A stretch of 64,000 nucleotides of DNA from Mobula hypostoma. Lineage: Eukaryota. The DNA lies in NCBI RefSeq assembly GCF_963921235.1, contig NC_086108.1:35590001-35654000 (forward strand), in the 5' to 3' direction. The position numbers and the translations under genes were made by a program. Under the pieces are notes generated by a model. It worked only from the letters and a program-made list of their open reading frames with translations. It ran no database searches and was not told where the DNA came from. This document shows, piece after piece, positions 1 to 61,144 of the stretch. Each line of letters begins with the position of its first letter. Position 1 is the first letter of the stretch.

Positions 1-3000
1 AGGCTGGAGACTAGAGGCGAGGCTGGAGGCTGGAGACTAGAGGCGAGGCTGGAGGCTGGAGACTAGAGGCGAGGCTGGGCGCTAGAGACTAGAGACTAGA
101 GACTAGAGACTAGAGGTGAGGCTGGAGGCTGGAGGCTTGAGAATAGAGGCGAGGCAGGAGGCTGGAGGCTGGAGACGAGACTAGAGGCGAGGCTGGAGGC
201 TAGAGGCTGGAGACGAGACTAGAGACGAGGCTGGAGGATGGAGACTAGAGGCGAGGCTAGAGGCTGGAGACGAGACTAGAGACGAGGCTGGAGGCTGGAG
301 ACTAGAGGCGAGGCTGGAGGCTGGAGGCTGGAGACTAGAGACAAGGCTGGAGGCTGGAGGCTGGAGACCAGAGGCGAGGCTGGAGGCTGGAGGCTAGAGA
401 CTAGAGGTGAGGCTGGAGGCTGGAAGCTAGAGACTAGAGGCTGGAGGCTGGAGGCTGGAAGCTGGAGGCTGGAGGCTGGAGACTAGAGTCTACAGGCTCG
501 AGGCTAGGCAAGGGACCAGGCGAGGCTTGGCAGGAGGCTGGAGGCTAGAGACTAGAGGCGACGCTGGAGGTTGGAGGCTAGAGACTAGAGACTAGAGGCT
601 GGAGGCTGGAGACTAGAAGCGAGGCTGGAGACTGGAGACGAGGCTGGAGGCTGGAGACTAGAGGCGAGGCTGGAGACTGGAGACTGGAGGCAAGGCTGGA
701 GGCTGGAGACTAGAGGCTGGAGGCTGGAGACTAGAGGCGAGGCTGGACGCTAGAGACTAAAGACTAGAGACTAGAGACTCGAGGTGAGGCTGGAGGCTGG
801 AGGCTGGAGAATAGAGGCGAGGCTGGAGGCTGGAGGCTGGAGGCTGGAGGCTGGAGGCTGGAGACGAGACTAGAGGCGAGGCTGGAGGCTAGAGGCTGGA
901 GACGAGACTAGAGACAAGGCTGGAGGCTGGAGACTAGAGGCAAGGCTGGAGGCTGGAGGCTGGAGACTAGAGGCGAGACTGGACGCTAGAGGCTGGAGGC
1001 TGGAGACGAGACCAGAGATGAGGCTGGAGGCTGGAGACTAGAGGCGAGGCTGGAGGCTGGAGGCTGGAGGCTGGAGACCAGAGGCGAGGCTGGAGGCTGG
1101 AGGCTAGAGACTAGAGGTGAGGCTGGAGGCTGGAAGCTAGAGACTAGAGGCTGGAGGCTGGAGGCTGGAGGCTGGAGACTAGACTCTACAGGCTCGAGGC
1201 TAGGCAAGGGACCAGGCAAGGCTTAGCAGGAGGCTGGAGGCTAGAGACTAGAGGCGACGCTGGAGTTTGGAGGCTAGAGGCTAGAGACTAGAGGCTGGAG
1301 GCTGGAGACTAGAAGCGAGGCTGGAGACTGGAGACGAGGCTGGAGGCTGGAGACTAGAGGTGAGGCTGGAGACTGGAGACTGGAGGCAAGGCTGGAGGCT
1401 GGAGACTAAAGGCTGGAGGCTGGAGACTAGAGGTGAGGCTGGACACTAGAGACTAAAGACTAGAGACTAGAGACTCGAGGTGAGGCTGGAGGCTGGAGAA
1501 TAGAGGCGAGGCTGGAGGCTGGAGGCTGGAGACGAGACTAGAGGCGAGGCTGGAGGCTGGAGGCTGGAGATGAGACTAGAGGCAAGGCTGGAGGCTGGAG
1601 GCTGGAGACTAGAGGCGAGACTGGACGCTAGAGGCTGGAGGCTGGAGACGAGACCAGAGACGAGGCTGGAGGCTGGAGACTAGAGGCGAGGCTGGAGGCT
1701 GGAGGCTGGAGACCAGAGGCGAGGCTGGAGGCTGGAGGCTAGAGACTAGAGGTGCGGCTGGAGGCTGGAAGCTAGAGACTAGAGGCTGGAGGCTGGAGGC
1801 TGGAAGCTGGAGGCTGGAGGCTGGAGACTAGACTCTACAGGCTCGAGGCTAGGCAAGGGACCAGGCAAGGCTTAGCAGGAGGCTGGAGGCTAGAGACTAG
1901 AGGCGACGCTGGAGGTTGGAGGCTAGAGGCTAGAGACTAGAGGCTGGAGGCTGGAGACTAGAAGCGAGGCTGGAGACTGGAGACGAGGCTGGAGGCTGGA
2001 GACTAGAGGCGAGGCTGGAGACTGGAGACTGGAGGCTAGGCTGGAGGCTGGAGACTAGAGGCTGGAGGCTGGAGACTAGAGGCGAGGCTGGACACTAGAG
2101 ACTAAAGACTAGAGACTAGAGACTCGAGGTGAGGCTGGAGGCTGGAGAATAGAGGCGAGGCTGGAGGCTGGAGGCTGGAGACGAGACTAGAGGCGAGGCT
2201 GGAGGCTGGAGGCTGGAGATGAGACTAGAGACAAGGCTGGAGGCTGGAGACTAGAGGCAAGGCTGGAGGCTGGAGGCTGGAGACTAGAGGCGAGACTAGA
2301 GGCTAGAGGTTGGAGACGGGACTAGAGACGAGGCTGGAGGCTGGAGACTAGAGGCGAGGCTGGAGGCTGGAGGCTGGAGACTAGAGGCGAGGCTGCAGGC
2401 TGGAGGCTGGAGACTAGAGTCGAGGCTGGAGTCTGGAGGCTGGAGAATAGAGGCGAGGCTGCAGGCTGGAGGCTGGAGACTAGAGACAAGGCTGGAGGCT
2501 GGAGGCTGGAGAGCAGAGGTGAGGCTGGAGGCTGGAGGCTAGAGACTAGAGGTGAGGCTGGAGGCTGGAAGCTAGAGACTAGAGGCTGGAGGCTGGAGGC
2601 TGGAGACTAGAGTCTACAGGCTCGAGGCTAGGCAAGGGTCCAGGCGAGGCTTGGCAGGAGGCTGGAGGCTAGAGACTAGAGGCGACGCTGGAGGTTGGAG
2701 GCTAGAGACTAGAGACTAGAGGCTGGAGGTTGGAGACCAGAAGCGAGGCTGGAGACTGGAGACGAGGCTGGAGACTGGAGACTAGAGGCGAGGCTGGAGA
2801 CTGGAGACTGGAGGCTGGAGGCAAGGCTGGAGGCTGGAGACTGGAGGCGAGGCTGGAGGCTGGAGACTAGAGGCAAGGCTGGAGGCTGGAGACTAGAGGC
2901 GAGACTGGAGACTACAGTTGAGGCTGGAGGCTGGAGGCTGGAGAATAGAGGCGAGGCTGGAGGCTGGAGGCTAGAGACGAGACTAGAGGCGATGCTGGAG

Positions 3001-6000
3001 GCTAGAGACTAGAGACTAGAGGCCGGAGGCTGGAGACGAGGCTGGAGGCTGGAGACTAGAGGCGAGGCTGGAGACTGGAGACTGGAGACTGGAGGCAAGG
3101 CTGGAGGCTGGAGACTAGAGCCGAGGCTGGAGGCTGGAGACTGGAGACTAGAGGCGAGGCTGGACGCTAGAGACTAAAGACTAGAGACTAGAGACTAGAT
3201 GTGAGGCTGGAGGCTGGAGGCTGGAGAATAGAGGCGAGGCTGGAGGCTGGAGGCTGGAGACGAGACTAGAAGCGAGGCTGGAGGCTGGAGGCTGGAGACT
3301 AGAGACTAGAGGCGAGGCTGGAGGCTGGAGACTAGAGGCGAGGCTGCAGGCTGGAGGCTGGAGACTAGAGTCGAGGCTGGAGGCTGGAGGCTGGAGACTA
3401 GAGACAAGGCTGGAGGCTGGAGGCTGGAGACCAGAGGCGAGGCTGGAGGCTGGAGGCTAGAGACTTGAGGCGAGGCTGGAGGCTGGAGGCTAGAGACTAG
3501 AGACTAGAGGCTGGAGGCTGGAGGCTAGAGACTGGAGGCTCGAGACTGGAGGCTCGAGACTAGAGTCAACAGGCTCGAGGCTAGGCAAGGGACCAGGCGA
3601 GGCTTGGCAGGAGGCTGGAGGCTAGAGACTAGAGGCGACGCTGGAGGTTGGAGGCTAGAGACTAGAGGCTAGAGGCTGGAGACTAGAAGCGAGTTTGGAG
3701 ACTGGAGACGAGGCTGGAGGCTGGAGACTAGAGGCGAGGCTGGAGACAGGAGACTGGAGGCTGGAGACTAGAGGCGAGGCTGGAGGCTGGAGGCTGGAGA
3801 CCAGAGGCAAGGCTGGAAGCTGGAGGCTGGAGACTAGAGGCGAGGCTGCAGGCTGGAGGCTGGAGACTAGAGTCGAGGCTGGAGGCTGGAGGCTGGAGAC
3901 TAGAGGCGAGGCTGGAGGCTGGAGGCTGGAGACTAGAGACAAGGCTGGAGGCTGCAGGCTAGAGACTAGAGGCGAGGCAGGAGGCTTGGCTTGGCAAGAG
4001 TCTAGAGGCTAGAGGCTGAAGTCTACAGGCTGGATGCTTGGCTTGGCAAGAGTCTAGAGGCAAGAAGCTGAAGTCTACAGGCTCGAGGCTAGGCAAGAGA
4101 CCAGGCGAGGCTTGGCAGGAGGCTGGAGATGAGACTGGAGGCGAGGCTCGAAGCTGGAGGCTGGAGACTGGAGACTGGAGGCAAGGCTGGAGGCTGGAGG
4201 CTAGAGGCGAGGCTGGAGGCTAGAGGCTAGAGGCTAGAAGCTGGAGACTAGAGGTGAGACTGGAAACTGGAGACTAGAGGCGAGGCTGGATGCTGGAGAC
4301 TAGAGGCGAGGCTGGAGGCTGTAGACTGGAGACTAGAGGCGAGGCTGGAGGCTGGAGGCTGGAGACTAGAGGCGAGGCTGGAGGCTGGAGGCTGGAGACT
4401 AGAGACTAGAGGCTAGAGGCTAGAGGCTAGAGGCTGAAGTCTACAGGCTCGAGGGTAGGCAAGAGACGAGGCAAGGATTGGCAGGAGGCTGGAGATGAGA
4501 CTAGAGGCGAGGCTGGAGGCTGGAGGCGAGGCTTGAGGCTGGAGGCTAGAGACTAGAGGCGAGGCTGGAGGCTGGAGGCTGGAGACTAGAGGTGAGACTG
4601 GAAACTGGAGACTAGGGGTGAGGCTGTGGACTGGAGACCAGAGGCGAGGCTGGAGGCTGGAGGCTAGAGGCGAGGCTGGAGGCTGGAGGCTGGAGACTAG
4701 AGGCGAGGCTGGAGGCTGGAGGCTGGAGACTAGAGACTAGAGGCTGAAGTCTAGAGGCTCGAGGGTAGGCAAGAGACGAGGCAAGGATTGGCCGGAGGCT
4801 GGAGATGAGACTAGAGACGAGGCTGGAAGCTGGAGGGTAGAGACTAGAGGCGAGGCTGGAGACTGGAGACTGGAGGCAAGGCTGGAGGCTGGAGACTAGA
4901 GGCGAGACTGGAGACTAGAGACTAGAGGCGAGACTGGAGACCAGAGGCGAGGCTGGAGACTAGAGACTAGAGGCGAAGCTGGAGGCTGGAGACTAGAGGC
5001 GAGGCTGGAGAATAGAGGCGAGGCTGGAGGCTGGAGACTAGAGGCGAGGCTGGAGGCTGGAGACTAGAGGCGAGACTGGAGACTAGAGACTAGAGCCGAG
5101 GCTGGAGACTAGAGGTGAGGCTGGAGGCTGGAGGCTGGAGACTATAGGCAAGGCTGGAGGCTGGAGACTAGTGGCGAGGCTGGAGGCTGGAGAATAGAGG
5201 CGAAGCTGGAGGCTGGAGATTGGAGTCTACAGGCTCGAGGCTAGGCCAGGGACCAGGCGAGGCTTGGCAGGAGGCTGGAGGCGATACTAGAGGCGAGGCT
5301 GGAGACTAGAGGTGAGGCTGGAGACTGGAGACTGCAGACTGGAGGCAAGGCTGAAGGCTGGAGACTAGAGGCGAGGCTGGAGGCTGGAGACTAGAGGCGA
5401 GGCTGGGCGCTAGAGACTAAAGACTAGAGACTAGAGACCAGAGGTGAGGCTGGAGGCTGGAGGCTGGAGAATAGAGGCGAGGCTGGAGCCTGGAGGCTGG
5501 AGACGAGACTGGAGGCGAGGCTGGAGGCTAGAGGCTGGAGACGAGACTAGAGACGAGGCTGGAGGCTGGAGACTAGAGGCGAGGCTGGAGACTGGAGGCT
5601 GGAGACTAGAGGCGAGGCTGGAGGCTGGAGGCTGGAGACTAGAGACAAGGCTGGAGGCTGGAGACCAGAGGCGAGGCTGGAGGCTGGAGGCTAGAGACTA
5701 GAGGTGAGGCTGGAGGCTGGAGGCTAGAGACTAGAGGCTGGAGGCTGGAGACTAGAGTCTACGGGCTCGAGGCTAGGCCAGGGACCAGGCGAGGCTTGGC
5801 AGGAGGCTGGAGGCTAGAGACTAGAGGCGACGCTGGAGGTTGGAGGCTAGAGACTAGAGACTAGAGGCTGGAGGCTGGAGACTAGAAGAGAGGCTGGAGA
5901 CTGGAGACGAGGCTGGAGGCTGGAGACTAGAGGCAAGGCTGGAGACTGGAGGCAAGGCTGGAGGCTGGAGACTAGAGGCGAGGCTGGAGGCTGGAGACTA

Positions 6001-9000
6001 GAGGCGAGGCTGGGCGCTAGAGACTAAAGACTAGAGACTAGAGACCAGAGGTGAGGCTGGAGGCTGGAGGCTGGAGAATAGAGGCGAGGCTGGAGCCTGG
6101 AGGCTGGAGACGAGACTGGAGGCGAGGCTGGAGGCTAGAGGCTGGAGACGAGACTAGAGACGAGGCTGGAGGCTGGAGACTAGAGGCGAGGCTGGAGACT
6201 GGAGGCTGGAGACTAGAGGCGAGGCTGGAGGCTGGAGGCTGGAGACTAGAGACAAGGCTGGAGGCTGGAGACCAGAGGCGAGGCTGGAGGCTGGAGGCTA
6301 GAGACTAGAGGTGAGGCTGGAGGCTGGAGGCTAGAGACTAGAGGCTGGAGGCTGGAGACTAGAGTCTACAGGCTCGAGGCTAGGCCAGGGACCAGGCGAG
6401 GCTTGGCAGGAGGCTGGAGGCTAGAGACTAGAGGCGACGCTGGAGGTTGGAGGCTAGAGACTAGAGACTAGAGGTGAGGCTGGAGGCTGGAGGCTGGAGA
6501 CGAGACTAGAGACGAGGCTGGAGGCTGGAGACTAGAGGCGAGGCTGGAGACTGGAGACTGGAGACTGGAGGCAAGGCTGGAGGCTGGAGACTAGAGGTTG
6601 GAGGCTGGAGACTAGAGGCGAGGCTGGACGCTAGAGACTAAAGACTAGAGACTAGAGACTAGATGTGAGGCTGGAGGCTGGAGAATAGAGGCGAGGCTGG
6701 AGGCTGGAGGCTGGAGACGAGACTAGAGGCGAGGCTGGAGGCTAGAGGCTGGAGACGAGATTAGAGACGAGGCTGGAGGCTGGAGACTAGAGACGAGGCT
6801 GGAGGCTGGAGACTAGAGGCGAGGCTGCAGGCTGGAGGCTGGAGACGAGACCAGAGGCGAGGCTGGAGGCTAGAGGCTGGAGACGAGACTAGAGACGAGG
6901 CTGGAGGCTGGAGGCTGGAGACTAGAGGCGAGGCTGCAGGCTGGAGGCTGGAGACTAGAGTCGAGGCTGGAGGCTGGAGGCTGGAGACTAGAGGCGAGGC
7001 TGGAGACTAGAGACAAGGCTGGAGGCTGGAGGCTGGAGACCAGAGGCGAGGCTGGAGGCTGGAGGCTAGAGACTAGAGGTGAGGCTGGAGGCTGGAGGCT
7101 AGAGACTAGAGGCTGGAGGCTGAGGCTGGAGGCTGGAGGCTGGAGACTAGAGTCTACAGGCTCGAGGCTAGGCAAGGGTCCAGGCGAGGCTTGGCAGGAG
7201 GCTGGAGGCTAGAGACTAGAGGCGACGCTGGAGGTTGGAGGCTAGAGACTAGAGACTAGAGGCTGGAGGCTGGAGACCAGAAGCGAGGCTGGAGACTGGA
7301 GACAAGGCTGGAGGCTGGAGACTAGAGGCGAGGCTGGAGACTGGAGACTGGAGGCTGGAGGCAAGGCTGGAGGGTGGAGACTGGAGGCGAGGCTGGAGGC
7401 TGGAGACTAGAGGCGAGGCTGGAGGCTGGAGACTAGAGGCGAGACTGGAGACTACAGGTCAGGCTGGAGGCTGGAGACTAGAGGCGAGGCTGGAGGCTAG
7501 AGACTAGAGGCGAGGCTGGAGACTGGAGACTGGAGACTGGAGGCAAGGCTGGAGGCTGGAGACTAGAGGTTGGAGGCTGGAGACTAGAGGCGAGGCTGGA
7601 CGCTAGAGACTAAAGACTAGAGACTAGAGACTAGATGTGAGGCTGGAGGCTGGAGAATAGAGGCGAGGCTGGAGGCTGGAGGCTGGAGACGAGACTAGAG
7701 GCGAGGCTGGAGGCTAGAGGCTGGAGACGAGATTAGAGACGAGGCTGGAGGCTGGAGACTAGAGACGAGGCTGGAGGCTGGAGACTAGAGGCGAGGCTGC
7801 AGGCTGGAGGCTGGAGACGAGACCAGAGGCGAGGCTGGAGGCTAGAGGCTGGAGACGAGACTAGAGACGAGGCTGGAGGCTGGAGACTAGAGGCGAGGCT
7901 GGAGGCTGGAGGCTGGAGACTAGAGGCGAGGCTGCAGGCTGGAGGCTGGAGACTAGAGTCGAGGCTGGAGGCTGGAGGCTGGAGACTAGAGGCGAGGCTG
8001 GAGACTAGAGACAAGGCTGGAGGCTGGAGGCTGGAGACCAGAGGCGAGGCTGGAGGCTGGAGGCTAGAGACTAGAGGTGAGGCTGGAGGCTGGAGGCTAG
8101 AGACTAGAGGCTGGAGGCTGAGGCTGGAGGCTGGAGGCTGGAGACTAGAGTCTACAGGCTCGAGGCTAGGCAAGGGTCCAGGCGAGGCTTGGCAGGAGGC
8201 TGGAGGCTAGAGACTAGAGGCGACGCTAGAGGTTGGAGGCTAGAGACTAGAGACTAGAGGCTGGAGGCTGGAGACCAGAAGCGAGGCTGGAGACTGGAGA
8301 CAAGGCTGGAGGCTGGAGACTAGAGGCGAGGCTGGAGACTGGAGACTGGAGGCTGGAGGCAAGGCTGGAGGGTGGAGACTGGAGGCGAGGCTGGAGGCTG
8401 GAGACTAGAGGCGAGGCTGGAGGCTGGAGACTAGAGGCGAGACTGGAGACTACAGGTCAGGCTGGAGGCTGGAGACTAGAGGCGAGGCTGGAGGCTAGAG
8501 ACTAGAGAGTAGAGGCTGGAGGCTGGAGACTAGAAGCGAGGCTGGAGACTGGAGACGAGGCTGGAGGCTGGAGACTAGAGGCGAGGCTGGAGACTGGAGA
8601 CTGGAGGCAAGGCTGGAGGCTGGAGACTAGAGGCGAGGCTGGAGGCTGGAGACTAGAGGCGAGGCTGGACGCTAGAGACTAAAGACTAGAGACTAGAGAC
8701 TCGAGGTGAGGCTGGAGGCTGGAGGCTGGAGAATAGAGGCGAGGCTGGAGGCTGGAGTTGAGACTAGAGGCGAGGCTGGAGGCTGGAGGCTGGAGACGAG
8801 GCTGGAGGCTGGAGGCTGGAGACTAGAGGCGAGGCTGGAGGCTAGAGGCTGGAGACTAGAGGCGAGGCTGCAGGCTGGAGGCTGGAGGCTGGAGACTAGA
8901 GTCGAGGCTGGAGGCTGGAGGCTGGAGACTAGTGGCGAGGCTGGAGGCTGGAGTTGAGACTAGAGGCGAGGCTGGAGGCTGGAGGCTGGAGACGAGGCTG

Positions 9001-12000
9001 GAGGCTGGAGGCTGGAGACTAGAGTCGAGGCTGGAGGCTGGAGGCTGGAGACCAGAGGCGAGGCTGGAGGCTGGAGGCTAGAGACTAGAGACTAGAGGCT
9101 GGAGGCTGGAGGCTGGAGGCTAGAGGCTGGAGGCTGGAGACTAAAGTCAACAGGCTCGAGGCTAGGCAAGGGACCAGGCGAGGCTTGGCAGGAGAATGGA
9201 GGCTAGAGACTAGAGGCGACGCTGGAGGTAGGAGGCTAGAGACTAGAGACTAGAGGCTGGAGGCTGGAGACTAGAAGCGAGGCTGGAGACTGGAGACGAG
9301 GCTGGAGACTGGAGACTAGAGGCGAGGCTGGAGGCAGGAGACTGGAGGCTGGAGACTAGAGGCGAGGCTGGAGGCTGGAGGCTGGAGACTAGAGGCAAGG
9401 CTGGAGGCTGGAGGCTGGAGACTAGAGGCGAGGCTGGAGACTAGAGGTGAGGCTGGAGACTGGAGACTGCAGACTGGAGGCAAGGCTGAAGGCTGGAGAC
9501 TAGAGGCGAGGCTGGAGGCTGGAGACTAGAGGCGAGGCTGGGCGCTAGAGACTAAAGACTAGAGACTAGAGACCAGAGGTGAGGCTGGAGGCTGGAGGCT
9601 GGAGAATAGAGGCGAGGCTGGAGCCTGGAGGCTGGAGACGAGACTGGAGGCGAGGCTGGAGGCTAGAGGCTGGAGACGAGACTAGAGACGAGGCTGGAGG
9701 CTGGAGACTAGAGACGAGGCTGGAGGCTGGAGGCTGGAGACTAGAGGCGAGGCTGCAGGCTGGAGGCTGGAGACGAGACCAGAGGCGAGGCTGGAGGCTA
9801 TAGGCTGGAGACGAGACTAGAGACGAGGCTGGAGGCTGGAGGCTGGAGGCTGGAGACGAGACTAGAGATGAGGCTGGAGGCTGGAGACTAGAGACGAGGC
9901 TGGAGGCTGGAGACTAGAGGCGAGGCTGCAGGCTGGAGGCTGGAGACGAGACCAGAGGCGAGGCTGGAGGCTAGAGGCTGGAGACGAGACTAGAGACGAG
10001 GCTGGAGGCTGGAGACTAGAGGCGAGGCTGGAGGCTGGAGGCTGGAGACTAGAGGCGAGGCTGCAGGCTGGAGGCTGGAGACTAGAGTCGAGGCTGGAGG
10101 CTGGAGGCTGGAGACTAGAGGCGAGGCTGGAGGCTGGAGGCTGGAGACTAGAGACAAGGCTGGAGGCTGGAGACCAGAGGCGAGGCTGGAGGCTGGAGGC
10201 TAGAGACTAGAGGCTGGAGGCTGAGGCTGGAGGCTGGAGGCTGGAGACTAGAGTTTACAGGCTCGAGGCTAGGCAAGGGTCCAGGCGAGGCTTGGCAGGA
10301 GGCTGGAGGCTAGAGACTAGAGGCGACGCTGGAGGTTGGAGGCTAGAGACTAGAGACTAGAGGCTGGAGGCTGGAGACCAGAAGCGAGGCTGGAGACTGG
10401 AGACAAGGCTGGAGGCTGGAGACTAGAGGCGAGGCTGGAGGCTGGAGACTAGAGGCAAGGCTGGAGGCTGGAGACTAGAGGCGAGACTGGAGACTACAGG
10501 TGAGGCTGGAGGCTGGATGCTAGAGACGAGACTAGAGGCGAGGCTGGAGGCTGGAGACTAGAGGCGAGGCTGGAGGCTAGAGACTAGAGACTAGAGGCTG
10601 GAGGCTGGAGACTAGAAGCGAGGCTGGAGACTGGAGACGAGGCTGGAGGCTGGAGACTGGAGACTGGAGGCAAGGCTGGAGGCTGGAGACTAGAGGCGAT
10701 GCTGGAGGCTGGAGACTAGAGGCGAGGCTGGACGCTAGAGACTAAAGACTAGAGACTAGAGACTAGAGATGAGGCTGGAGGCTGGAGGCTGGAGAATAGA
10801 GGCGAGGCTGGAGGCTGGAGGCTGGAGTTGAGACTAGAGGCGAGGCTGGAGGCTGGAGGCTGGAGACGAGGCTGGAGGCTGGAGGCTGGAGACTAGAGGC
10901 GAGGCTGGAGGCTGGAGACTAGAGGCGAGGCTGCAGGCTGGATGCTGGAGACTAGAGTCAAGGCTGGAGGCTGGAGGCTGGAGACTAGTGGCGAGGCTGG
11001 AGGCTGGAGACTAGAGACAAGGCTGGAGGCTGGAGGCTGGAGACCAGAGGCGAGGCTGGAGGCTGGAGGCTAGAGACTTGAGGCGAGGCTGGAGGCTGGA
11101 GGCTAGAGACTAGAGACTAGAGGCTGGAGGCTGGAGACTAGAGTCAACAGGCTCAAGGCTAGGCAAGGGACCAGGCGAGGCTTGGCAGGAGGCTGGAGGC
11201 TAGAGACTAGAGGCGACGCTGGAGGTTGGAGGCTAGAGACTAGAGACTAGAGGCTGGAGGCTGGAGGCTGGAGACTAGAAGCGAGGCTGGAGACTGGAGA
11301 CAAGGCTGGAGACTGGAGACTAGAGGCGAGGCTGGAGGCAGGAGACTGGAGGCTGGAGACTAGAGGCGAGGCTGGAGGCTGGAGGCTGGAGACTAGAGGC
11401 AAGGCTGGAGGCTGGAGACTAGAGGCGAGGTTGGAGGCTGCAGGCTAGAGACTAGAGGTGAGGCAGGAGGCTTGGGATGGCAAGAGTCTAGAGGCTAGAG
11501 GCTGAAGTCTACAGGCTGGATGCTTGGCTTGGCAAGAGTCTAGTGGCAAGAAGCTGAAGTCTACAGGCTCGAGGCTAGGCAAGAGACCAGGCGAGGCTTG
11601 GCAGGAGGCTGGAGGCGAGGCTCGAAGCTGGAGGCTGGAGACTAGAGGCGAGGCTGGAGACTGGAGACTGGAGGCAAGGCTGGAGGCTGGAGACTAGAGG
11701 CGAGACTGCAGAATAGAGGCGAGGCTAGAGGCTGGAGACTAGAGGTGAGGCTGGAGGTTGGAGGCTGGAGACTAGAGGCGAGGCTGGAGGCTGGAGGCTG
11801 GAGACTGGAGGCGAGGCTGGAGGCTGGAGACTGGAGGCGAGGCTGGAGGCTGAAGACTAGAGGCGAGGCGTGAGGCTGGAGACTAGAGTCTACAGGCTCG
11901 AGGCTAGGCAAGAGACTAGGCGAGGCTTGGCAGGAAGCAGGAGACGAGACTAGAGGCGAGGCTGGAGACTGGAGACTGGAGACTGGAGGCAAGGCTGGAG

Positions 12001-12700
12001 GCTGGAGACCAGAGGCGAGGCTGGAGGCTGGAGGCGAGGCTGGATGCTGGAGACTAGAGGCGAGGCTGGAGAATAGAGGCGAGGCTGGAGAAGAGAGGTG
12101 AGGCTAGAGGCTGGAGACTTGAGGTGAGGCTGGAGACTAGAGGTGAGGCTGGAGGCTGGAGGCTGGAGACTAGAGACAAGGCTGGAGTCTGGAGACTAGA
12201 GTCTACAGGCTCGAGGCTAGGCAAGAGACCAGGCGAGGCTTGGCAGGAGGCTGGAGACGAGATTAGAGGCGAGGCTGGAAGCTGGAGGCTGGAGACTAGA
12301 GGCGAGGCTGGAGACTGGAGACTGGAGACTGGAGACTGGAGACTAGAGGCTAGAGGCGAGGCTGGAGCCTGGAGGCTGGAGACTAGAGGCAAGGCTGGAA
12401 GCTGGAGACTAGAGGCGAGGCTGGAGGCTGGAGACTAGAGGCGAGGCTGGAGGCTTGGCTTGGCAAGAGTCTAGAGGCTAGAGGCTGAAATCTACAGGCT
12501 GGAGGCTTGGCTTGGCAAGAGTCTAGAGGCTAGAAGCTGAAGTCTACAGGCTCGAGGGTAGGCAAGAGACGAGGCAAGGCTTGGCAGGAGGCTGGAGATG
12601 AGACTAGAGGCGTGGCTGGAGACTAGAGGCAAGGTTGGAGGCTGGAGGCTGGAGACTAGAGGCAAGGCTGGAGGCTGGAGGCTGGAGACTAGAGGCAAGG
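1..12700. repeat. Complex purine-rich satellite of G(G/A)CT(G/A)GA 7-mers and GGCGA-type 5-mers, with higher-order repeats
   Basis: Continuous mosaic of GGCTGGA, GACTAGA, GACTGGA, GGCTAGA with GGCGA, GACGA, GGTGA, GGCAA. About 20 copies of a ~55-bp landmark cassette (GTCTACAGGCTCGAGGCTAGGCAAG...). Runs off the left edge of the window. Confidence 0.97.
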
Positions 12701-13246
12701 GCGCGGATCACCTGGGCAGGGCGCGTATCACCACCCGACAGAGGCAAGGGACAGAAAGGGACAGAACCAACCCCAGATAACGGCAGGACAGCCTGGCTTA
12801 CCAGGGCGGAGGCAAGGGACAGGAAGGGACAGAACCAACCCCAGGTAACGGCAAGACAGCCTGGCTTACCTGGGTGGAGGCAAGGGACAGGGAAGGAGCT
12901 AGGTACAGGGTGGTTCCAGGACCAGACAGCAAGACAACGCAAGGCTACTGGCAAAGCAAGGCAAGGCGAGAACTTCAGGTGAGGCGAGAGTTACCTGCAA
13001 GACAAGGCAGGGCTTCAGGTGAGGAAACAGTAGGCAGGGGAAGGGATACAAGGAGTAAGGACAAGAACAATCCAGCAGCCATGCCCTGGTCTCTGAAGGT
13101 ATTTATGCAGCCAGCCCCAATGAGCATCAGCTGACTCAATTAGAGCACAACAAGGACAGAAACAGGGTAGACAGGAAAACCTGGAGCAAGGGTGGATGGA
13201 CCGAACCGTAAACCGGAATATGGACTTCACGGACCGGACTATGACA
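12700..13246 (-). mobile_element. Putative 5' part (U3/R) of a Gypsy-like LTR that leads into the satellite
   Basis: Minus strand starts TGTCATAG at 13246, then TGAGTCAGCTG (AP-1/E-box) and TATA-like GCATAAATACC (~13098-13108), then tandem repeats. The other LTR end and TSD are not in the window. Confidence 0.6.
12741..12891. repeat. 68-bp tandem repeat, ~2.2 copies
   Basis: GAGGCAAGGGACAG starts at 12741, 12809 and 12877; the first two units are nearly identical. Confidence 0.9.
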
Positions 13247-14122
13247 TACTTGTACCGGGCTGGAAGCCTGAGAAGTATTTATTCGTCATATATGCCGGGA
13301 AAGCACTAGATCCTTTTTCTTTGCTCTCCTCTGTTTTCTGTTATAAGAACGTGTTTGTCTCATATCCAGACTGAGTATCTCTCTTTACTCATTTCTGTTC
13401 TATGTAGCTTACGTCATAACAGGCTAACAGTGATTCTACAATACAGGTTCCTCGAAGAACCAGGGCCAGGACAGCTTGGGGTCAAATAATATTACATCAG
13501 TGCTCTCACATTTCAGTCTTCTCAAGGATGCCAGCTCATTTCCTAATATTTCTTTTCAATTACCTAAAAAGGTATTACATACACAAACTACACAATCCAA
13601 TTGCAATGAAAGGTCAGGTGAGAGTAGGTACAGTACCGATAGAAAATGATGCTGGAGAAATTGTAATGGGAGATAAGGAGATGGCGTAGGAACTGAACGA
13701 GTATTTTGCATCAGTTTTCACGGAGGAAGACATCAACAGTATACCGGACACTCAAGGGTGGCAGGGAAGGGAAGTGTGCGCAGTCACAATTACGACAGAG
13801 AAAGTACTCAGGAAGCTGAATAGTCTAAGGGTAAATAAATCTCCCGGACCAGATGGAATGCACCCTCGTGTTCTTAAGGAAGTAGCTGTGGAGATTGCGG
13901 AGGCATTAGCGATGATCTTTCAAAAGTCGATAGATTCTGGCATGGTTCTGGAGGACTGGAAGATTGCAAATGTCACTCTGCTATTTAAGAAGGGGGCAAA
14001 GAAGCAAAAAGAAAATTATAAACGCAAACAACAGGAATTCTGCAGATGCCGGAAACTCAAGCAACACACATCAAAGTTGCTGGTGAACGCAGCAGGCCAA
14101 GCAGCATCTATAGGAAGAGGCG

Positions 14123-14158
14123 CAGTCGACGTTTCAGGCCGAGACCCTTCGTCAGGAC
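14123..14158 (-). ncRNA. Minimal type I hammerhead ribozyme motif (antisense arm)
   Basis: Exact reverse complement of 14173-14208. Confidence 0.8.
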
Positions 14159-14172
14159 ACTGACACACACAG

Positions 14173-14208
14173 GTCCTGACGAAGGGTCTCGGCCTGAAAC
14201 GTCGACTG
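14173..14208 (+). ncRNA. Minimal type I hammerhead ribozyme motif
   Basis: GTC-CTGACGA-AGG(GTCTCGG)CCT-GAAAC-GTC^GAC: CUGANGA core, helix II, GAAA, palindromic ACGU helix III and GUC cleavage triplet, as described for Penelope-like element hammerheads. Confidence 0.8.
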
Positions 14209-16469
14209 CGCCTCTTCCTATAGATGCTGCTTGGCCTGCTGCGTTCACCAGCAACTTTGATGTGTGTTGAAAAGAAAATTATAGACCTGTTAGCTTGACA
14301 TCGGTGGTTGGGAAGTTGTTGGAGTCGATTGTCAAGGATGAGGTTACAGAGTACCTGGAGGCATATGACAAGATAGGCAGAACTCAGCATGGATTCCTTA
14401 AAGGAAAATCCTGCCTGACAAACCTATTACAATTTTTTGAGGAAATTACCAGTAGGCTAGACAAGGGAGATGCAGTGGATGTTGTATATTTGGATTTTCA
14501 GAAGGCCTTTGACAAGGTGCCGCACATGAGGCTACTTAACAAAATAAGAGCCCATGGAATTACGGGAAAGTTACATACGTGGATAGAGCGCTGGCTGATT
14601 GGCAGGAAACAGAGAGTGGGAATAAATGGATCCTATTCTGGTTGGTTGCTGGTTACCAGTGGTGTTCCACAGAGGTCCGTGTTGGGGCCGCTTCTTTTTA
14701 CATTGTACATCAACGATTTGGATTATGGAATAGATGGCTTTGTGGCTATGTTTGCTGATGATACGAATATAGGTGGAGGGGCCGGTAGTGCTGAGGAAAC
14801 AGAGAGTCTGCAGAGAGTCTTGGATAGATTGGGAGAATGGGCAAAGAAGTGGCAAATGAAATACGATGTTGGAAAGTGTATGGTTATGCATTTTGGCAGA
14901 AGAAATTAATGGGCAGACTATTATTTAAATGGGGAGAGAATTCAAATTCCTGAGATACAACAGGACTTGGGAGTCCTCGTGCAGGATACCCTTAAAGTTA
15001 ACCTCCAGGTTGAGTCGGTGGTAAAGAAGGCGAATGCAATGTTGGCATTCTTTTCTAGAGGAATAGAGTATAGGAGCAGGGATGGGATATTGAGGCTCTA
15101 TAAGGCGTTGGTAAGACCTCACTTGGAGTACTGTGGGCAGTTTTGGGCTCCTTATTTAAGAAAGGATGTGCTGACATTGGAGAGGGTACAGAGAAGGTTC
15201 ACTGGAATGATTCCATGAATGAGAAGGTTAATATATGAGGAACGTTTGTCCGCTCTTGGACTGTATTCCTTGGAGTTTAGAAGAATGAGGGGGTCCTCAT
15301 AGAAACATTTCGAATGTTGAAAGGCATGGACAGAGTGGATGTGGCAAAGTTGTTTCCCATGATGGGGGAGTCTAGTACAAGAGGGAGTGACTTAAGGATT
15401 GAAGGGTGCCTATTCAGAACAGAAATGCAAAGAAATTTTTTTAGCCAGAGGGTGGTGAATCTATGGAATTTGTTGCCATGGGTAGCAGCGGAGGCCAAGT
15501 CATTGAGTGTATTTAAGGCAGAGATTGATAGGTATCTGAGTAGCCAGGGCACCAAAGGTTATGGTGAGAAGGCGGGGGAGTGGGACTAAATGGGAGAATG
15601 GATCAGCTAATGATAAAATGGTGGAGCAGACTCAATGGGCCGAAAGGCCAACTTCTGCTCCTTTGTCTTATGGTCTTATGGTCTAAGGCTGAAAGTCGAC
15701 TGTTCTTTTCAGTTGTGCAGGTGTTACACATACCACCCACCAGTCACTAATTCAAAGGTAGGAATGAGCACCAATGAAGCTTTTATCAGAATATCTTGAG
15801 CCAACTCTGGGAACCTAACGCACATCTCCCATTCTCTTTAATCCAGTATTGTCTTCAAAGTAAATAAACTACAGTAGTTTCCACGAAGCAATGAGAAAAA
15901 TCAAATTCAGAGAAACCATTAATAAGGCAGGAAGTTGTCAGTCAATTCTTCTAGTTAATTATATGATCAGTGGCCCGAAGGCACCATCCTGCTGCTTCAA
16001 CAGACTTTTGAAAGAAAGCATTGTTTGCAATATCAAGATGAAGAAATTCTCTGCAGATGTCTATACATTAACAACGTATAATGATTGCAATATACAATAT
16101 ATGCTCTAAGGACAAAGTGTCTGGACTGAGGTGACGTGAGGGCATCATAATCTGTCATCTCAACCTCAAAACCACAGAGGTGAGGAAATGCTAAGCATGC
16201 CATAGTTTGCGGCAGAAGACTACTTTTTCCATGAGGGAGGAAAGTAGTCAGCAATTGCTTTCTTAGTGAAGAAGTGACAATACTATATATAAACAAATAA
16301 AGTTAAAGCCAAAAATGTTAAAAAATACTGGAAATACTCAACATGTAAGGAAGCATCTGTGAAAGAGAACCATAGATAGCCTATCATAAACTTGGTTCAT
16401 GTGCAATGCTATCTACTTAAAGAGTTTGTAGAAAGATCAAGAGAATAAACTACAAGATGCTCTAAAAAA

Positions 16470-19245: not shown

Positions 19246-19375
19246 CTGACGAAGGGTCTCGGCCTGAAACGTCGACTGCGCCTCTTCCTATAGATGCTGC
19301 TTGGCCTGCTGCGTTCACCAGCAACTTTGATGTATGTTGCTTGAATTTCCAGCATCTGCAGAATTCCTGTTGTTT
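19246..19375 (+). mobile_element. Penelope-like single-arm insertion starting at the hammerhead core
   Basis: Matches the reverse complement of the left arm of the 60254 copy. Starts at CTGACGA and ends with the tail ...GAATTCCTGTTGTTT. No TSD; ~12 bp of host CR1 are missing. Confidence 0.85.
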
Positions 19376-20343
19376 AAGTATTTCTATAGCCTCGCTACTT
19401 CTTCAAAACTACCTGCCCCTCCACTTATCTTCATATTGTCCGCAAACTTTGCAACAAAGCGTTCAATTTCATCATTCAAGTCATTGACACATAATGTGAA
19501 AAGAAGTGGTCTCAGCAGAGACCCCTGTGGAACACCACTGATAACTGGCAGCCAACCAGAAAAGGCTCCTTTTATTCCCATTCTTTGTCTCCTGCCAATC
19601 AGCCACTGCTTTATCAATAGGCTCTCAACTTGTTAAGTAGCCTTGTGTGTGACACCTTGCCAAAGGCCTTCTGAAAATCCAAGTACACAATATCATGCAG
19701 TTCTCTTTTGTCCATCCTGCTTGTTATTTCTTCAAAGAATTCCAATAGGTTTGTCAGGCAAGATTTTTCTCTTGAGGAAACTATGCTGACTACAGCCTAT
19801 TTCATCATGTGCCTTAAAGTACCCTGAGACCTCATCTTTAATAATAGACTCCAAGGTCTTCCCAAACACTGAAGTCAGACTAATTGACCTACAGTTTCCT
19901 TTCTTCTGCCTCTCTCCCTTCTTGATGAGTGGAGTGACATTTGCAATTTTCCAGTCTTCCTGAACCATTCCAGAATCTAGTGAACTTGAAAGATCAATAC
20001 TAATGCCTCCACAATCTCTTCAGCCACCTCTTTCAGAACCCTGGGTTGTATACCATCTGGACTCGGTGACCTACCTTCCTTCAGACCTTTCAGTTTCCTA
20101 AGAACCTACTCCCTATTAATGGCAGCTTCACACCCTTATGGCACCTGACACTCTGGAACTTCCACCATACTGCTAGTATCTTCCACAATGAAGATGGATG
20201 CAAAACATGTATTTAGTTTGTCCCCCATTACTTCTTCTCCAGCATCGTTTTCCAGCAGTCTGATTTCCCCTCTCACCTCTCTTTTACACTTTATGTAGCT
20301 AAAGACACTTTCAGTATCCTCTTTAGTATTATTGGCTACCTTA

Positions 20344-20674
20344 CGAGGGGTGATTGATAAGTTCGTGGCCTTAGTTAGAATGAGATGAGTTGTACAGCTC
20401 TCATTACATGCACACGCAGTTTACCTCTTTGAGTGAAAATTCAGGAAGTTTGAAGTTAATAACTCATCTCCTTCTACTTTAGGCCATGAACTTACTAGTC
20501 ATCCCTGCCGTGGACCGCTTTCTGGAGGTCCAAGACGTCAACTTCTACAAAGAAGGGATTCGTATGCTCCAGGACCACTGGTCTAAGTGTGTAAATGTAG
20601 GAAAAATAAATGTGCTAGGTTTTCTAAAATTGACACCTTCTACCTTAGGCCACGAACTTATCAATCACCCCTCG
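20344..20674 (+). mobile_element. Non-autonomous mariner element with TA TSD
   Basis: TIRs CGAGGGGTGATTGATAAGTTCGTGGCC; TA on both sides; residual transposase C-terminus FYKEGIRMLQDHWSKCVNVG; extra internal TIR copy at ~20461-20506. Confidence 0.92.
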
Positions 20675-21612
20675 TACTTTTGTATTCCATCTTTTCCTTA
20701 ATGATTTTTTAGTTGCCTTCTGTTGGTTTTTGAAAGCTACCCAATCTTCTAACTTCCCACTAATTTCTGCTCTATTATATGCCCTCTCTTTGGCTTTTAT
20801 GTTGGCTTTGGCTTCTCGTTAGCCATGGTTGTGTCATCTTGTCTTTGGAATATTTCTTCCTGTTTGGGATGTGTATATCCTGTTCCTTCTGAATTGCTTC
20901 CAGACACATCCTGACCCTGGCACCTGGGAGGCAACATAACATCTGAGGGTCGCTTCCGCATCCACAGAATCGGCTTTCTGCCTCTCTAGTATGGAATCAC
21001 CCATCACTACTGCACTCCTCTTCTTCCCACTTCCCCGCTGAGCCACAGTGCCAAACGCAGTGCCAGGGAGCCACTTGCTGAGGCTTCGCCCTGTTATTTC
21101 TCCCCACCTTCCAACAGTATCAAAAGCAGTATACTTATTATTGAGGGGAATGGCCACAGGGTTAGTCTACACTGGCTGCTTATTCCCCTTCCCTCTCCTG
21201 GCTGTCACTCAATTACCTGCTTCCTGCAATGTAGGGGTAACTACCTCCCTGTAGCTTCTATCTATCACCTCCTCATTTTGTTCATGAGCTGAATGTCCAT
21301 CGAGCTGCCACTCCAGTTCCTTAACACTGTCTCTATGGAGCTGCAGCTTGATGCACTTTGTACAGAAGTAGTTACCAGGGAGACTGGAGCTCTCCCAAAG
21401 TTCCCACATCTCACACAAAGAACATGCCACTAACTCTAAATCCATTCTCGATACTCTAGCTATACACTAATACACAAAGAAGGAGAATAAAAAATCTCCT
21501 GGGAAACTTAGAGCCTCCACCTGTTCTTATCAAAACTTGTTGAGCTAAGCCTTCTACTCTAACCCTGGCCCACTCACCCCAATGGCTGCTCTGCATATAC
21601 CTTGTTCCTTTT

Positions 21613-22218
21613 TGTAACACTCAGGGCTAACGGCTCGTGGTTGTCTAGGGGAAACCCCGTCTGCCCACCAAACCGTGTCTCATGTTTGCGTAGTTGCCGT
21701 GTAATGCACCCTGGTACAAACTCACACATCAAATATCAGACAGCACACAATGTACGATTTACAAATTACACTTTATAAATCTTGCTGGAACTATGTAATT
21801 AATAGAGATAAAATATAAAAGGAAGTAAAACGCGCCAAACTTATCAGAGTTCAACCACTTCATGCATAACTGTTGGAGCTCAGTTAACGGGGTCTTCTTT
21901 CCACCATTCGATCTGCTCCGACCTCCTCGACCCACCGCCTGGGACCAACCACGGTGTTCGACCAGAGCACATCCAGCATGTCCTTCCTCTTCAGTTCTCC
22001 TCCCGAAAAAAACCCGCGCACTGACCCAGGTTCCCACACAGAATAACATAGCTTCCATTGGTTAGTTCCTCTGTTTTCTATAACTATAACCCAAACATTT
22101 CAGCTATAGAGAACCTTACCTCATAGTTAATATTACGAAGAAGCCATTTCATTATTACACTTCAGAGAAGCCATTTTATAATTAGCAGTTAACAATTAAC
22201 ATTACTGAGAACCCTACA
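21613..22218 (-). mobile_element. Solo LTR (Gypsy-like), 606 bp
   Basis: TGTA...TACA termini; 4-bp TSD TTTT; inserted in a CR1 5' region. Confidence 0.8.
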
Positions 22219-23579
22219 TTTTTATTGGCCCTCTCCAAGTTACTAATAATAGAAGCAATCTCCCGCTCTGCAGACAAGTCCCGGCAGGCCCTACTCACTT
22301 TTTTAAACTGGTATGTAAAATCCACCGAGAGCTACATGGAACTACCTCTGCAAGATCCTGCTCCGCAGACAAGACCTGAGAGGCCCACTCACTTTTTAAA
22401 ACTGGCACTAAAACGCCACAAGGAATTGTCTCCAACTCTCTGAGCAATCTCCCGCTCCACAGTTGATTGGAATATAGGGAAAAAAGATTGCTGGCAAAAA
22501 TTAATGGGATTATCCGATGGCCCATTGATCTGGTGTTGATTTGATAGGCTGCATTGTCCTCCTCCTATGTCAGAAGGAAATATGATATTGTAAAAGGCTT
22601 AAATAATGAATATATTTCTCTCATTGGTTGTAGGTAGAGAGGATGTTGCTTAGGAATGTAAATGGACTGTGATATATAGTAAATTCTGAATTATGGAGTG
22701 TGATCTTTTATAATAGATTGAAAGTTTCACACTTCAATCCTTCCAAACATGTACCAGTCCAGTAGAAGTATCTATAACTCCTCCAGAGTCTTCCTCTTTC
22801 TGGCCTTGAGACCCCCATCTGCCACCCAGGAAACAGAGGTTGATGAATATGCTTAGACTGTGAACATTGAAAAAAATATTCCTACTCAGCCTGCAGACCT
22901 TGGTAAAAAGCATTGTTCGGTACATATACACTCTGCAAGGCCTTCATTGTCTCTCTCATACTTGATTATAAACTGTAAAGCCATTATTTTTAAAAGTTAT
23001 TTATCCTTGGTATCTAACCAATACTTACCTCTCAGCCAAGTTATCTGACATTGGGCAAGATCAAGTTGGGTCTGACCAGCTGCTTGGATTCACCATCCAG
23101 GTTGGATTTACTCCTTCTATAAAGAACAGCAACTCTCAACTCTCCCCACCAGTAAATATCCCACAAGGTGACCAGGGTCCAAGTGGCAACCAGGCTAAAT
23201 ATCCAGAGCACACTTGCAACTTTTCTCATGCCATGGCCGCTAGGTCCATTGAACTATGTTTAAATGTTTTTGATAGTCAGAGACATTTTAAAAGCTGCTT
23301 GAATAGATTGCAATAGTTAAAAAGGGGTAATAATTTCATTTAATCAAATTTGAAAAATAAAATAAAATCATTGCTCATCTCCATTATTGTTTTCCATAGA
23401 GTTATCCAGCTTCTCCTTGTATAAAACTGGAAGAGGGGATCAGTTTATTCAGTTGCTTTGTCACAGTTCTCAATGGTCACTTCAGTATTGAAGGAGGAGG
23501 CCAAATGCATCAGTGTCTCACATTCAGCTCATAGGCAATTGGGGGAAATCTGAGACAAATTATGACCCCAACAACTGAA

Positions 23580-60161: not shown

Positions 60162-60253
60162 TAAATCTCAGTGTTAGGGAAGGTTGAACCTACCGAACTC
60201 AAAAGACAGAACAGAATGCTGCCACTGGGCAAAACCAGCATCTTGACACAAGT

Positions 60254-60469
60254 AACAGGAATTCTGCAGATGCTGGAAATTCAAGCAACATACATCAAAG
60301 TTGCTGGTGAACGCAGCAGGCCAAGCAGCATCTATAGGAAGAGGCGCAGTCGACGTTTCAGGCCGAGACCCTTCGTCAGGACAAAGGGTCTCGGCCTGAA
60401 ACGTCGACTGCGCCTCTTCCTATAGATGCTGCTTGGCCTGCTGCGTTCACCAGCAACTTTGATGTATGT
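60254..60469. mobile_element. Penelope-like mini-insertion: perfect 86-bp inverted repeat plus one-sided tail, 14-bp TSD
   Basis: Arms 60288-60373 and 60384-60469; 34-nt extension on the left only; TSD ATCTTGACACAAGT at 60240-60253 and 60470-60483. Confidence 0.88.
60347..60382 (-). ncRNA. Minimal type I hammerhead ribozyme motif
   Basis: Minus strand reads GTCCTGACGAAGGGTCTCGGCCTGAAACGTCGACTG. Confidence 0.8.
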
Positions 60470-61144
60470 ATCTTGACACAAGTTGCAGCTTTCTCGGGTT
60501 GTGAGTTGCAATGAATTGACCTCAGTGGCGACTGAACAAAATGAGAGATGGAATTTCTTGCAGTTAGCTTTTCATGTCAGTTTTGTGCTGAATATGAGCA
60601 GTCTGAAAAATATTCTCTGAAATTGCACCGATTCAGAGGGTGTCGATGAGCTGAGATAACTGCCAAACGACTCAGTCAGCCGGCATTGACGACATTACTG
60701 CTTCAAACTGTTATTCTATCACAAGTCTAATCTGACTGCTTCAGAGATTTCAAAACAGAGTTGACCAGAAAAAGAACCACATAGATACAAGAGAGCCAAA
60801 ATATGTTATCTGTACTTTTCCAACTTGAAAGAACATTAAGATTATTTCAAACGCTCTGTTCTTTTCTCAGAGAACATGAGACCACAGTTCAGAAGAAACT
60901 GGTTCACTTAATTTTGGCAGAGTGATCAGCATTAAGATATGTAATTTGTTTGGAGGAAGTACATTCCTTAGCTTTCCAGTCAACTTTATAAAAAAACAGC
61001 AACAGCATCATTCCTTTCCAGACTTGTGCTTTCATATATTTCATTAGATATAAACCAATGCACTCCCTCCCACTCTCTGGCTATCTAACAACCCTGCTGG
61101 TCCATTGAACCTCTTTAGACAACTGGTCAACCAGTGAGATAATA

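Follow-up and report, generated by a model that had tools for sequence, protein, structure and literature searches.

A satellite array of at least 12.7 kb that probably expanded inside a long terminal repeat in the ray Mobula hypostoma

Introduction

The mouse loci Ms6-hm and Hm-2 are multi-kilobase arrays of G-rich units of 4-5 bases, whose origin in the long terminal repeats (LTRs) of MaLR elements was reportedly recognised by Kelly in 1994. Recent accounts describe these expanded simple tandem repeats as having arisen in MaLR LTRs (PMC9659126, PMC6947457) and as mutating at high rates (PMC3419097). Satellites of Lathyrus sativus derived from the Ty3/gypsy element Ogre are described as short arrays in dispersed elements that occasionally expand (10.1101/677575), and pea PisTR-A is listed as another Ogre-derived satellite (PMC9659126). 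Sobo of Solanum, RPCS of Ctenomys, MALREP of the swamp eel and CRM1TR/CRM4TR of maize are likewise related to LTRs, which reviews name as a common source of satellites (PMC9659126). Here we describe a locus of the ray Mobula hypostoma (NC_086108.1, assembly GCF_963921235.1), contained in a stretch of 64,000 nucleotides that is hereafter called the window and whose positions serve as coordinates throughout. Its first 12,698 positions form a satellite that adjoins the 5' part of a high-copy LTR element, and we infer that this array probably grew inside the LTR after the element had inserted.

Results

A satellite beside the 5' part of an LTR element

Positions 1-12698 form a tandem array of at least 12.7 kb that continues past the left edge of the window (Tandem Repeats Finder: period 7, 1921.6 copies), confirming the satellite of more than 12 kb reported in an initial annotation made from the letters alone. 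This complex satellite, assigned to the minus strand, consists, when written as plus-strand words, of the dominant heptamers GGCTGGA (n=689) and GACTAGA (n=305), the 5-base word GGCGA and variants of these; a parse into 7- and 5-base words accounts for 81% of the bases exactly and for 17% with mismatches. Sub-periods of 19, 26 and 33 bases are present, and the composition (GC content 0.62, GC skew about 0.49) is strongly strand-asymmetric.

The adjoining segment, 12699-13246, is well supported as the 5' part of a high-copy LTR element, represented here by a 5' or solo LTR in the minus orientation. Public contigs of four runs (X1 and X9 from organism A, X5 from organism B and X17 from organism F) were placed on 12600-13600 at 80% likeness, giving 15111 contigs for X1, 10994 for X5, 440 for X9 and 7642 for X17; X1, X5 and X17 are DNA-type runs, and X9 is RNA only by our guess. 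Exactly at 13246, the outer end of the sequence TGTCA (13242-13246, minus strand), 178 contigs of X1, 188 of X5 and 14 of X9 depart into flanks that are long and mutually unlike (agreement 0.33-0.39), and TGTCA is therefore read as a family-wide terminus of the TG type. In the three DNA-type runs, 13110-13245 is covered about 11,000-22,000 times as deeply as the unique flank 13348-13483, a ratio to be taken as an order of magnitude and not as a copy number; 12699-13246 is single-copy inside the window and high-copy in the genome. The initial annotation had named a single-copy 12700-13246 beforehand as telling against its own reading, and contig placement shows the segment to be multi-copy. Its identification as an LTR is upheld by this dispersed multi-copy occurrence and by the TG start at one sharp, family-wide boundary with many different flanks.

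Inward from the terminus, on the minus strand, follow promoter-like motif matches at 13100-13138, namely AP-1 (TGAGTCA, 13138), an E-box (CAGCTG, 13133) and a CCAAT-like ATTGG (13121), together with the TATA-like CATAAATA at 13107. Past the TATA-like box the sequence is a chain of tandem modules, all on the minus strand: older, degenerate internal duplications at 12929-13031 (spacing 40-68 bp, with many GCAAG/CAGGTGAGG words), a 68-bp tandem repeat of 2.3 copies at 12741-12896 with a splice-donor-like site in every full unit, and two copies of a 20-base GC-rich unit at 12698-12738, of which 37 X17 contigs show extra copies before 12698 (agreement 0.81). The array comes next. The TGTCA start, AP-1 and E-box motifs, TATA-like box and 68-bp repeat that had been noticed earlier were thus all located, at 13246-12741. 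The window holds no internal region of the element (primer-binding site, polypurine tract or gag-pol) and no attached coding sequence.

The LTR part may resemble fish Gypsy LTRs. Assignment to the Gypsy superfamily would be a prior expectation from batoid repeat content, reported as 2.5-3.7% for Gypsy/DIRS1 and 0.15-0.63% for retroviral LTRs (10.64898/2026.10.27.761883). Exact-pattern scans gave no match to the LTR end in metagenome_contigs or viral_contigs, nor to the array cassette described below in metagenome_contigs, collections in which such DNA is not expected.

Divergence along the array

A marker cassette of about 55 bases occurs 20 times in the array at spacings of 310-1107 bases. 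The interior, 5230-11400, is recently duplicated and consists of higher-order units of about 0.5-1.1 kb, each marked by the cassette. It includes near-identical twins of 625 bp (offset 998), 532 bp (offset 607) and 412 bp (offset 972) with 99.5-99.7% identity, each pair differing at 2 sites, all of them transitions. Over most of its length the array shows a variant pattern of its own, with identities of 94-98%. Such twins are absent from 11600-12698, beside the LTR, and from about 4130-5230, and these two regions have cassette variants and short spacing in common: the LTR-proximal block (11400-12698), the least homogenised, carries cassettes at 11567, 11896, 12209 and 12550 (spacing 313-341 bp), and a second diverged block (3916-5230) carries the same variants at a spacing of 310-476. 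The match between 3916-4128 and 11402-11614, which are 96.7% identical at an offset of 7486, suggests from the sequence an older duplication of about 7.5 kb. The fraction of unique 20-mers is 0.37-0.41 in the LTR-proximal 1.1 kb, 0.32 at 4.2-4.9 kb and 0.00-0.08 at 5.6-9.1 kb, and 11601-12700 is almost without a near-identical partner elsewhere. Because this divergence profile and the nested periods fit what would be expected of it, we propose that the array grew stepwise with a least homogenised edge, of which 11400-12698 would be the oldest part. The initial annotation had placed the most complex cassette nearest the LTR; the CTTGGCTTGGCAAGAG cassette does lie there, at 12454 and 12506, but is not confined to it (3985, 4037, 11523), and the claim holds only insofar as homogenisation is lowest in the LTR-proximal 1.1 kb.

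A coding role for the array is ruled out by a longest stop-free stretch of 157 codons and the presence of 2 ATG on the minus strand. Neither AATAAA nor ATTAAA occurs in 1-13246, and the poly(A) signal of the LTR is predicted to lie past the array; TGACA is absent from the minus strand of the array, and Rfam and tRNA scans each returned 0 matches. A strong G-quadruplex tendency is unsupported, the G4Hunter-like mean being 0.64 with 0.03% of windows at 1.2. A check for a gradient of CpG decay found GGCAAGG raised only in the last 700 bases (9 versus 1-6 per kb), counts that are too low to weigh.

Position of the array relative to the LTR

The LTR appears not to have ended where the array begins, because TGT is absent from the plus strand from 7637 to 13246, the minus strand has neither AATAAA nor a TGACA end between 13246 and the array, and no second terminus between 12700 and 13246 is found among the loose-end clusters listed for X1 and X5 (the smallest listed comprise 30 and 34 contigs, with 1080 weaker ones beyond them). 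In other copies, array-type words stand beside LTR sequence: GAGGCGAGGCTTGGCTTGGC stands directly before 13021 in 24 X17 contigs and CGAGGCTAGGCA before 12711 in 4 X9 contigs, and in one X17 contig of depth 468 position 12680 is joined to 13022. All four runs contain array-type words, the depth of the array bins relative to 13110-13245 being 11.6 in X1, 5.0 in X5, 2.6 in X17 and 1.8 in X9; the deep modules of X17 are instead 12804-12837 and 12702-12769, at 15.6 and 4.6 times the depth of 13110-13245. By a rough reckoning, if all array words sat in LTRs, they would amount to a few hundred bases per copy on average, and the present 12.7 kb would be an outlier. Pyrimidines make up 70-72% of the minus strand in both 1-12698 and 12741-12899, and 55% in the 42 bases between. 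The array and 12711-13246 have 59 7-mers in common on the same strand (27.7 ± 7.5 in 500 shuffles) and 11 on the other, a level reached by 0 of 94 control tiles, and the words GGCAAGG and GGCGAG that had been noted on the LTR side occur 4 times and twice, respectively, in 12711-13246. Within 13100-13246 there is no excess of array words.

Several observations weigh against a location inside the LTR. The far end of the array, and with it the target duplication, lies off the window. None of the 32 contig pieces listed spans 12700 (34412 further pieces lie beyond these), and 69 X1 and 34 X5 contigs run on as array past 12700, as a free-standing satellite would. GGCTGGA and GACTAGA occur 0 times in 12711-13246 and the heptamers end abruptly at 12698; the passage into the array is not smooth, and the gradual transition once described is not borne out. 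With the 68-bp duplicates taken out and each distinct word scored once, the observed sharing is equalled or exceeded in 22-54 of 1000 shuffles and becomes marginal, and when five cassettes are aligned locally to the LTR part, 9-39 of 300 shuffles match the scores. Furthermore, what links array and LTR in X17 and X9 is a set of short consensus strings at 80% likeness, a kind of joint to which other repeats can give rise. The earlier proposal that the satellite derives from LTR-internal repeats holds insofar as no second element end was found and array words adjoin LTR sequence elsewhere, and is weakened insofar as no listed piece bridges 12700 and the word sharing is modest.

These points bear on a different history, in which an independent satellite, perhaps seeded in the distant past by a related LTR, came to abut a truncated LTR through a deletion, or an ectopic recombination, at a shared GAGGCAAGG word. 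Such a secondary junction, which we regard as unlikely, would account for the abrupt end of the heptamers, for the want of a bridging contig among the pieces listed, for array words being 2-12 times deeper than the LTR and for the recurrence of AGAGGCAAGGG, which lies on the junction at 12691 and again at 12740, where the 68-bp unit starts. It accords poorly with the array-cassette words that adjoin LTR sequence elsewhere, both in further copies and in further organisms, with the LTR end of the array being the least homogenised and with the strand bias common to array and LTR. The variant in which an LTR inserted cleanly into a pre-existing satellite is ruled out, as no LTR end lies at the junction. 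Retroviral splice donors usually lie in the leader, a point in favour of a non-autonomous element that has a short LTR, ending within 12700-13100, and carries the array in its 5' leader or internal region. Ogre arrays, too, are described as internal to the element (10.1101/677575). We consider this arrangement distinctly improbable, in that 12700-13246 contains no ACA-type end and no AATAAA, that no listed loose-end cluster lies there, as would be expected from solo or 3' LTRs, and that donors can sit inside an LTR, as described for MaLR LTRs (PMC5538554).

The initial annotation had further suggested transcription of the array as a C/U-rich long non-coding RNA (lncRNA), a suggestion that found no support. 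An LTR-driven lncRNA gene with the array as its functional transcript would fit the intact-looking promoter motifs directed into the array and the strong strand asymmetry, but is very unlikely given a splice donor upstream of the array that is apparently used by another copy (see below), the absence of a poly(A) signal in 13 kb and of any Rfam match, and an array that has no sign of constraint and a low CpG content fitting methylated DNA (observed/expected 0.35-0.38, near the background of 0.30). That mis-joined reads inflated the length of the array in the assembly is hardly credible: some twins are 99.5-99.7% identical, as such an artefact would have it, but they still differ by their transitions, and most of the array has the variant pattern of its own noted above. 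Growth inside the LTR after insertion is thus the reading that we favour, and, with at least 12.7 kb reaching far beyond the usual size of the element, the array likely belongs to the class of satellites derived from transposable elements.

Insertion into a host repeat

On the other side of the terminus, 13247-13319 (plus strand) is the terminal 73 bp of another multi-copy repeat, which was split by the LTR insertion. We draw this conclusion because a second loose-end cluster lies at 13318/13319 (348; 180+350; 16+25 contigs) and because 128 X5 contigs continue the host repeat before 13246 in a way that differs from the LTR (agreement 0.71). From its appearance, we take 13247-13319 to be probably the end of a Penelope-like repeat. 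In other copies the continuation of the host repeat contains GTCATCGAAAC, which may resemble a Penelope-type hammerhead end. The host repeat is also found at the matching site of organism B, where X5 record 24 spans 13280-13600 with 11 differences.

The flanks beyond 13246 have a weak consensus that begins GTAACAG in X1, X5 and X9, and within it GTAAC reads symmetrically around its middle base, the third. Such symmetry is described for the palindromic target motifs that accompany duplications of odd length (PMC3276498), and the target duplication would therefore more probably be of 5 bp than of 4 bp. For the copy at 13246 it would be TACTT, with which the host-repeat segment 13247-13319 begins. 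Two points tell against this: TACTT does not match the GTAAC preference, and GTAACAG could be internal sequence in front of 3' LTRs.

Splice donors upstream of the array

Three donor-like sites lie on the minus strand upstream of the array, ending at 12995, 12870 and 12802. The 5' splice donor motif CAG/GTAAGC occupies 12864-12872 and its exon would end at 12870 (junction 12870/12869). The second site within the 68-bp repeat, CTG/GTAAGC at 12796-12804, ends at 12802 and reads CAG/GT in most other copies, the other letter at 12803 making up 55317 of a depth of 57725 in X1 and 26012 of 27257 in X5. X17 loose ends show GACTTACC (minus strand GGTAAGTC). X9 record 27, a contig of 256 nucleotides and depth 94.7, matches 13009-12870 on the minus strand with 15 differences in 140, indicating another copy of the LTR, and departs exactly at CAG/GTAAGC for 116 other bases. 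As one contig of a run guessed to be RNA, it gives a hint of an LTR-derived first exon, and it agrees with the orientation proposed in the initial annotation. The 30 listed letters beyond the apparent junction include an ATG with 7 open codons behind it, and this downstream part may belong to a host exon under the control of another LTR copy. MaLR LTRs are described as carrying an internal splice donor and supplying first exons in mammals (PMC5538554).

As judged from the motif, the array may be intronic in LTR-started transcripts and be spliced out via the 12870 donor. A crude rule also finds 23 acceptor-like sites on the minus strand of the array, and splicing into the array on that strand is possible. 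No X9 contig covers the unique flank 13348-13600, a gap that indicates neither expression nor silence of the copy at 13246, and contig depth on the two sides of the TATA box is not readable as a start site. The plus strand of the array contains 30 donor-like AG/GT(A/G)AG words, which could matter if the array is part of an intron read on the plus strand; the window yielded no host gene.

Further repeats

Outside the array the window consists mostly of pieces of CR1/L2-like long interspersed nuclear elements (LINEs), with many self-matches of 65-90%, and RVT_1 was found at 14271-14906 and 61187-62032 (two of the ten open reading frames scanned). A young repeat, 97-100% identical among its copies at 14022-14267, 19246-19375 and 60246-60476, has inserted into CR1-like LINEs and in two instances forms an inverted pair. 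The repeat carries CTGACGAAGGGTCTCGGCCTGAAAC, a minimal hammerhead ribozyme core to which Rfam gave no score, at 14176 and 19246 on the plus strand and at 14155 and 60379 on the minus strand; minimal hammerhead ribozymes have been described at the ends of Penelope-like elements (PMC4209133). A 606-bp segment at 21613-22218 (TGTAAC...CTACA, TTTT on either side, no AATAAA within) is a candidate solo LTR of another family, directly to the right of which lies a 94-bp tandem repeat of 2.2 copies (22254-22462, 70% matched). Finally, an element of about 335 bp at 20342-20676, situated in a LINE, has 39-bp terminal inverted repeats (94.9%) and TA at both ends and is by appearance a miniature inverted-repeat transposable element of the Tc1/mariner type.

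Discussion

We propose that a high-copy LTR retroelement integrated in minus orientation into an older repeat, presumably by an integrase-type insertion. The LTRs of its family would consist of short tandem modules strung together behind the TATA box, with units of about 40 bp, 68 bp, 20 bp and 7/5 bases, and the short 7/5-base module would have arrived with the LTR and then expanded. More than 12 kb inside an LTR exceeds what retrotransposition plausibly carries, and for this reason the expansion is placed on the chromosome, after insertion. Growth would have begun with slippage of the 7-mer, proceeded to cassette units of about 320 bp and then, by unequal exchange, to units of 0.6-1.1 kb and a probable duplication of about 7.5 kb, leaving the LTR-nearest end least homogenised. 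The outcome would be a dead-end, non-coding satellite to which we ascribe no host function. Should the LTR of the copy at 13246 fire, the 12870 donor would allow removal of the array by splicing.

Set beside the described systems, the present locus resembles Ms6-hm and Hm-2 as a short-unit, G-rich array that would have come from an LTR at a single vertebrate locus, and MaLR LTRs also have an internal donor. It differs from them in mixing 7- and 5-base words, in its 20 cassettes and higher-order units of 0.3-1.1 kb and in its host, a ray. With the Ogre satellites and PisTR-A it would have in common short arrays in many dispersed copies of an LTR element, of which occasional copies expand; Ogre arrays, however, lie downstream of gag-pol in the 3' untranslated region, whereas in the present case it is a 5' or solo LTR whose promoter precedes the array. 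The monomers of Sobo, RPCS, MALREP and CRM1TR/CRM4TR are long LTR pieces. These satellites, among them one fish Gypsy case, are like the present array in coming from LTR sequence and unlike it in that here a low-complexity internal module would have expanded with the remaining LTR kept in place. A literature search, which left aside the repeat databases in which the family may already be catalogued, found no paper on the present LTR family or array.

It is possible, although we think it rather doubtful, that the LTR family acts as a satellite nursery, with thousands of copies bearing chains of modules, different modules amplified in each lineage and one module endowed with a working donor. The 7/5-base module would then be the one amplified in organisms A and B, and the 20-bp and donor-bearing modules those amplified in organism F. 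If this is true, expansion of modules would multiply or bury donors and alter which host exons can be reached from LTR-started transcripts, and the thousands of loci of the family, ranging from a few units to more than 12 kb, would form a natural series in which to follow the birth of vertebrate satellites.

Satellites seeded by transposable elements are already known, and the present array, in which nothing points to a host function, would be a large new vertebrate example. The origin of long satellite arrays is an open question, and the best-resolved retrotransposon cases come mostly from plants and from a few mouse loci. A high-copy vertebrate LTR family that has tandem modules of its own, and in which one copy has reached more than 12 kb with readable steps of growth (7, 26/33, about 320, 600-1100 and about 7500 bases), would allow the length, age and chromosomal position of arrays to be compared across thousands of insertions.

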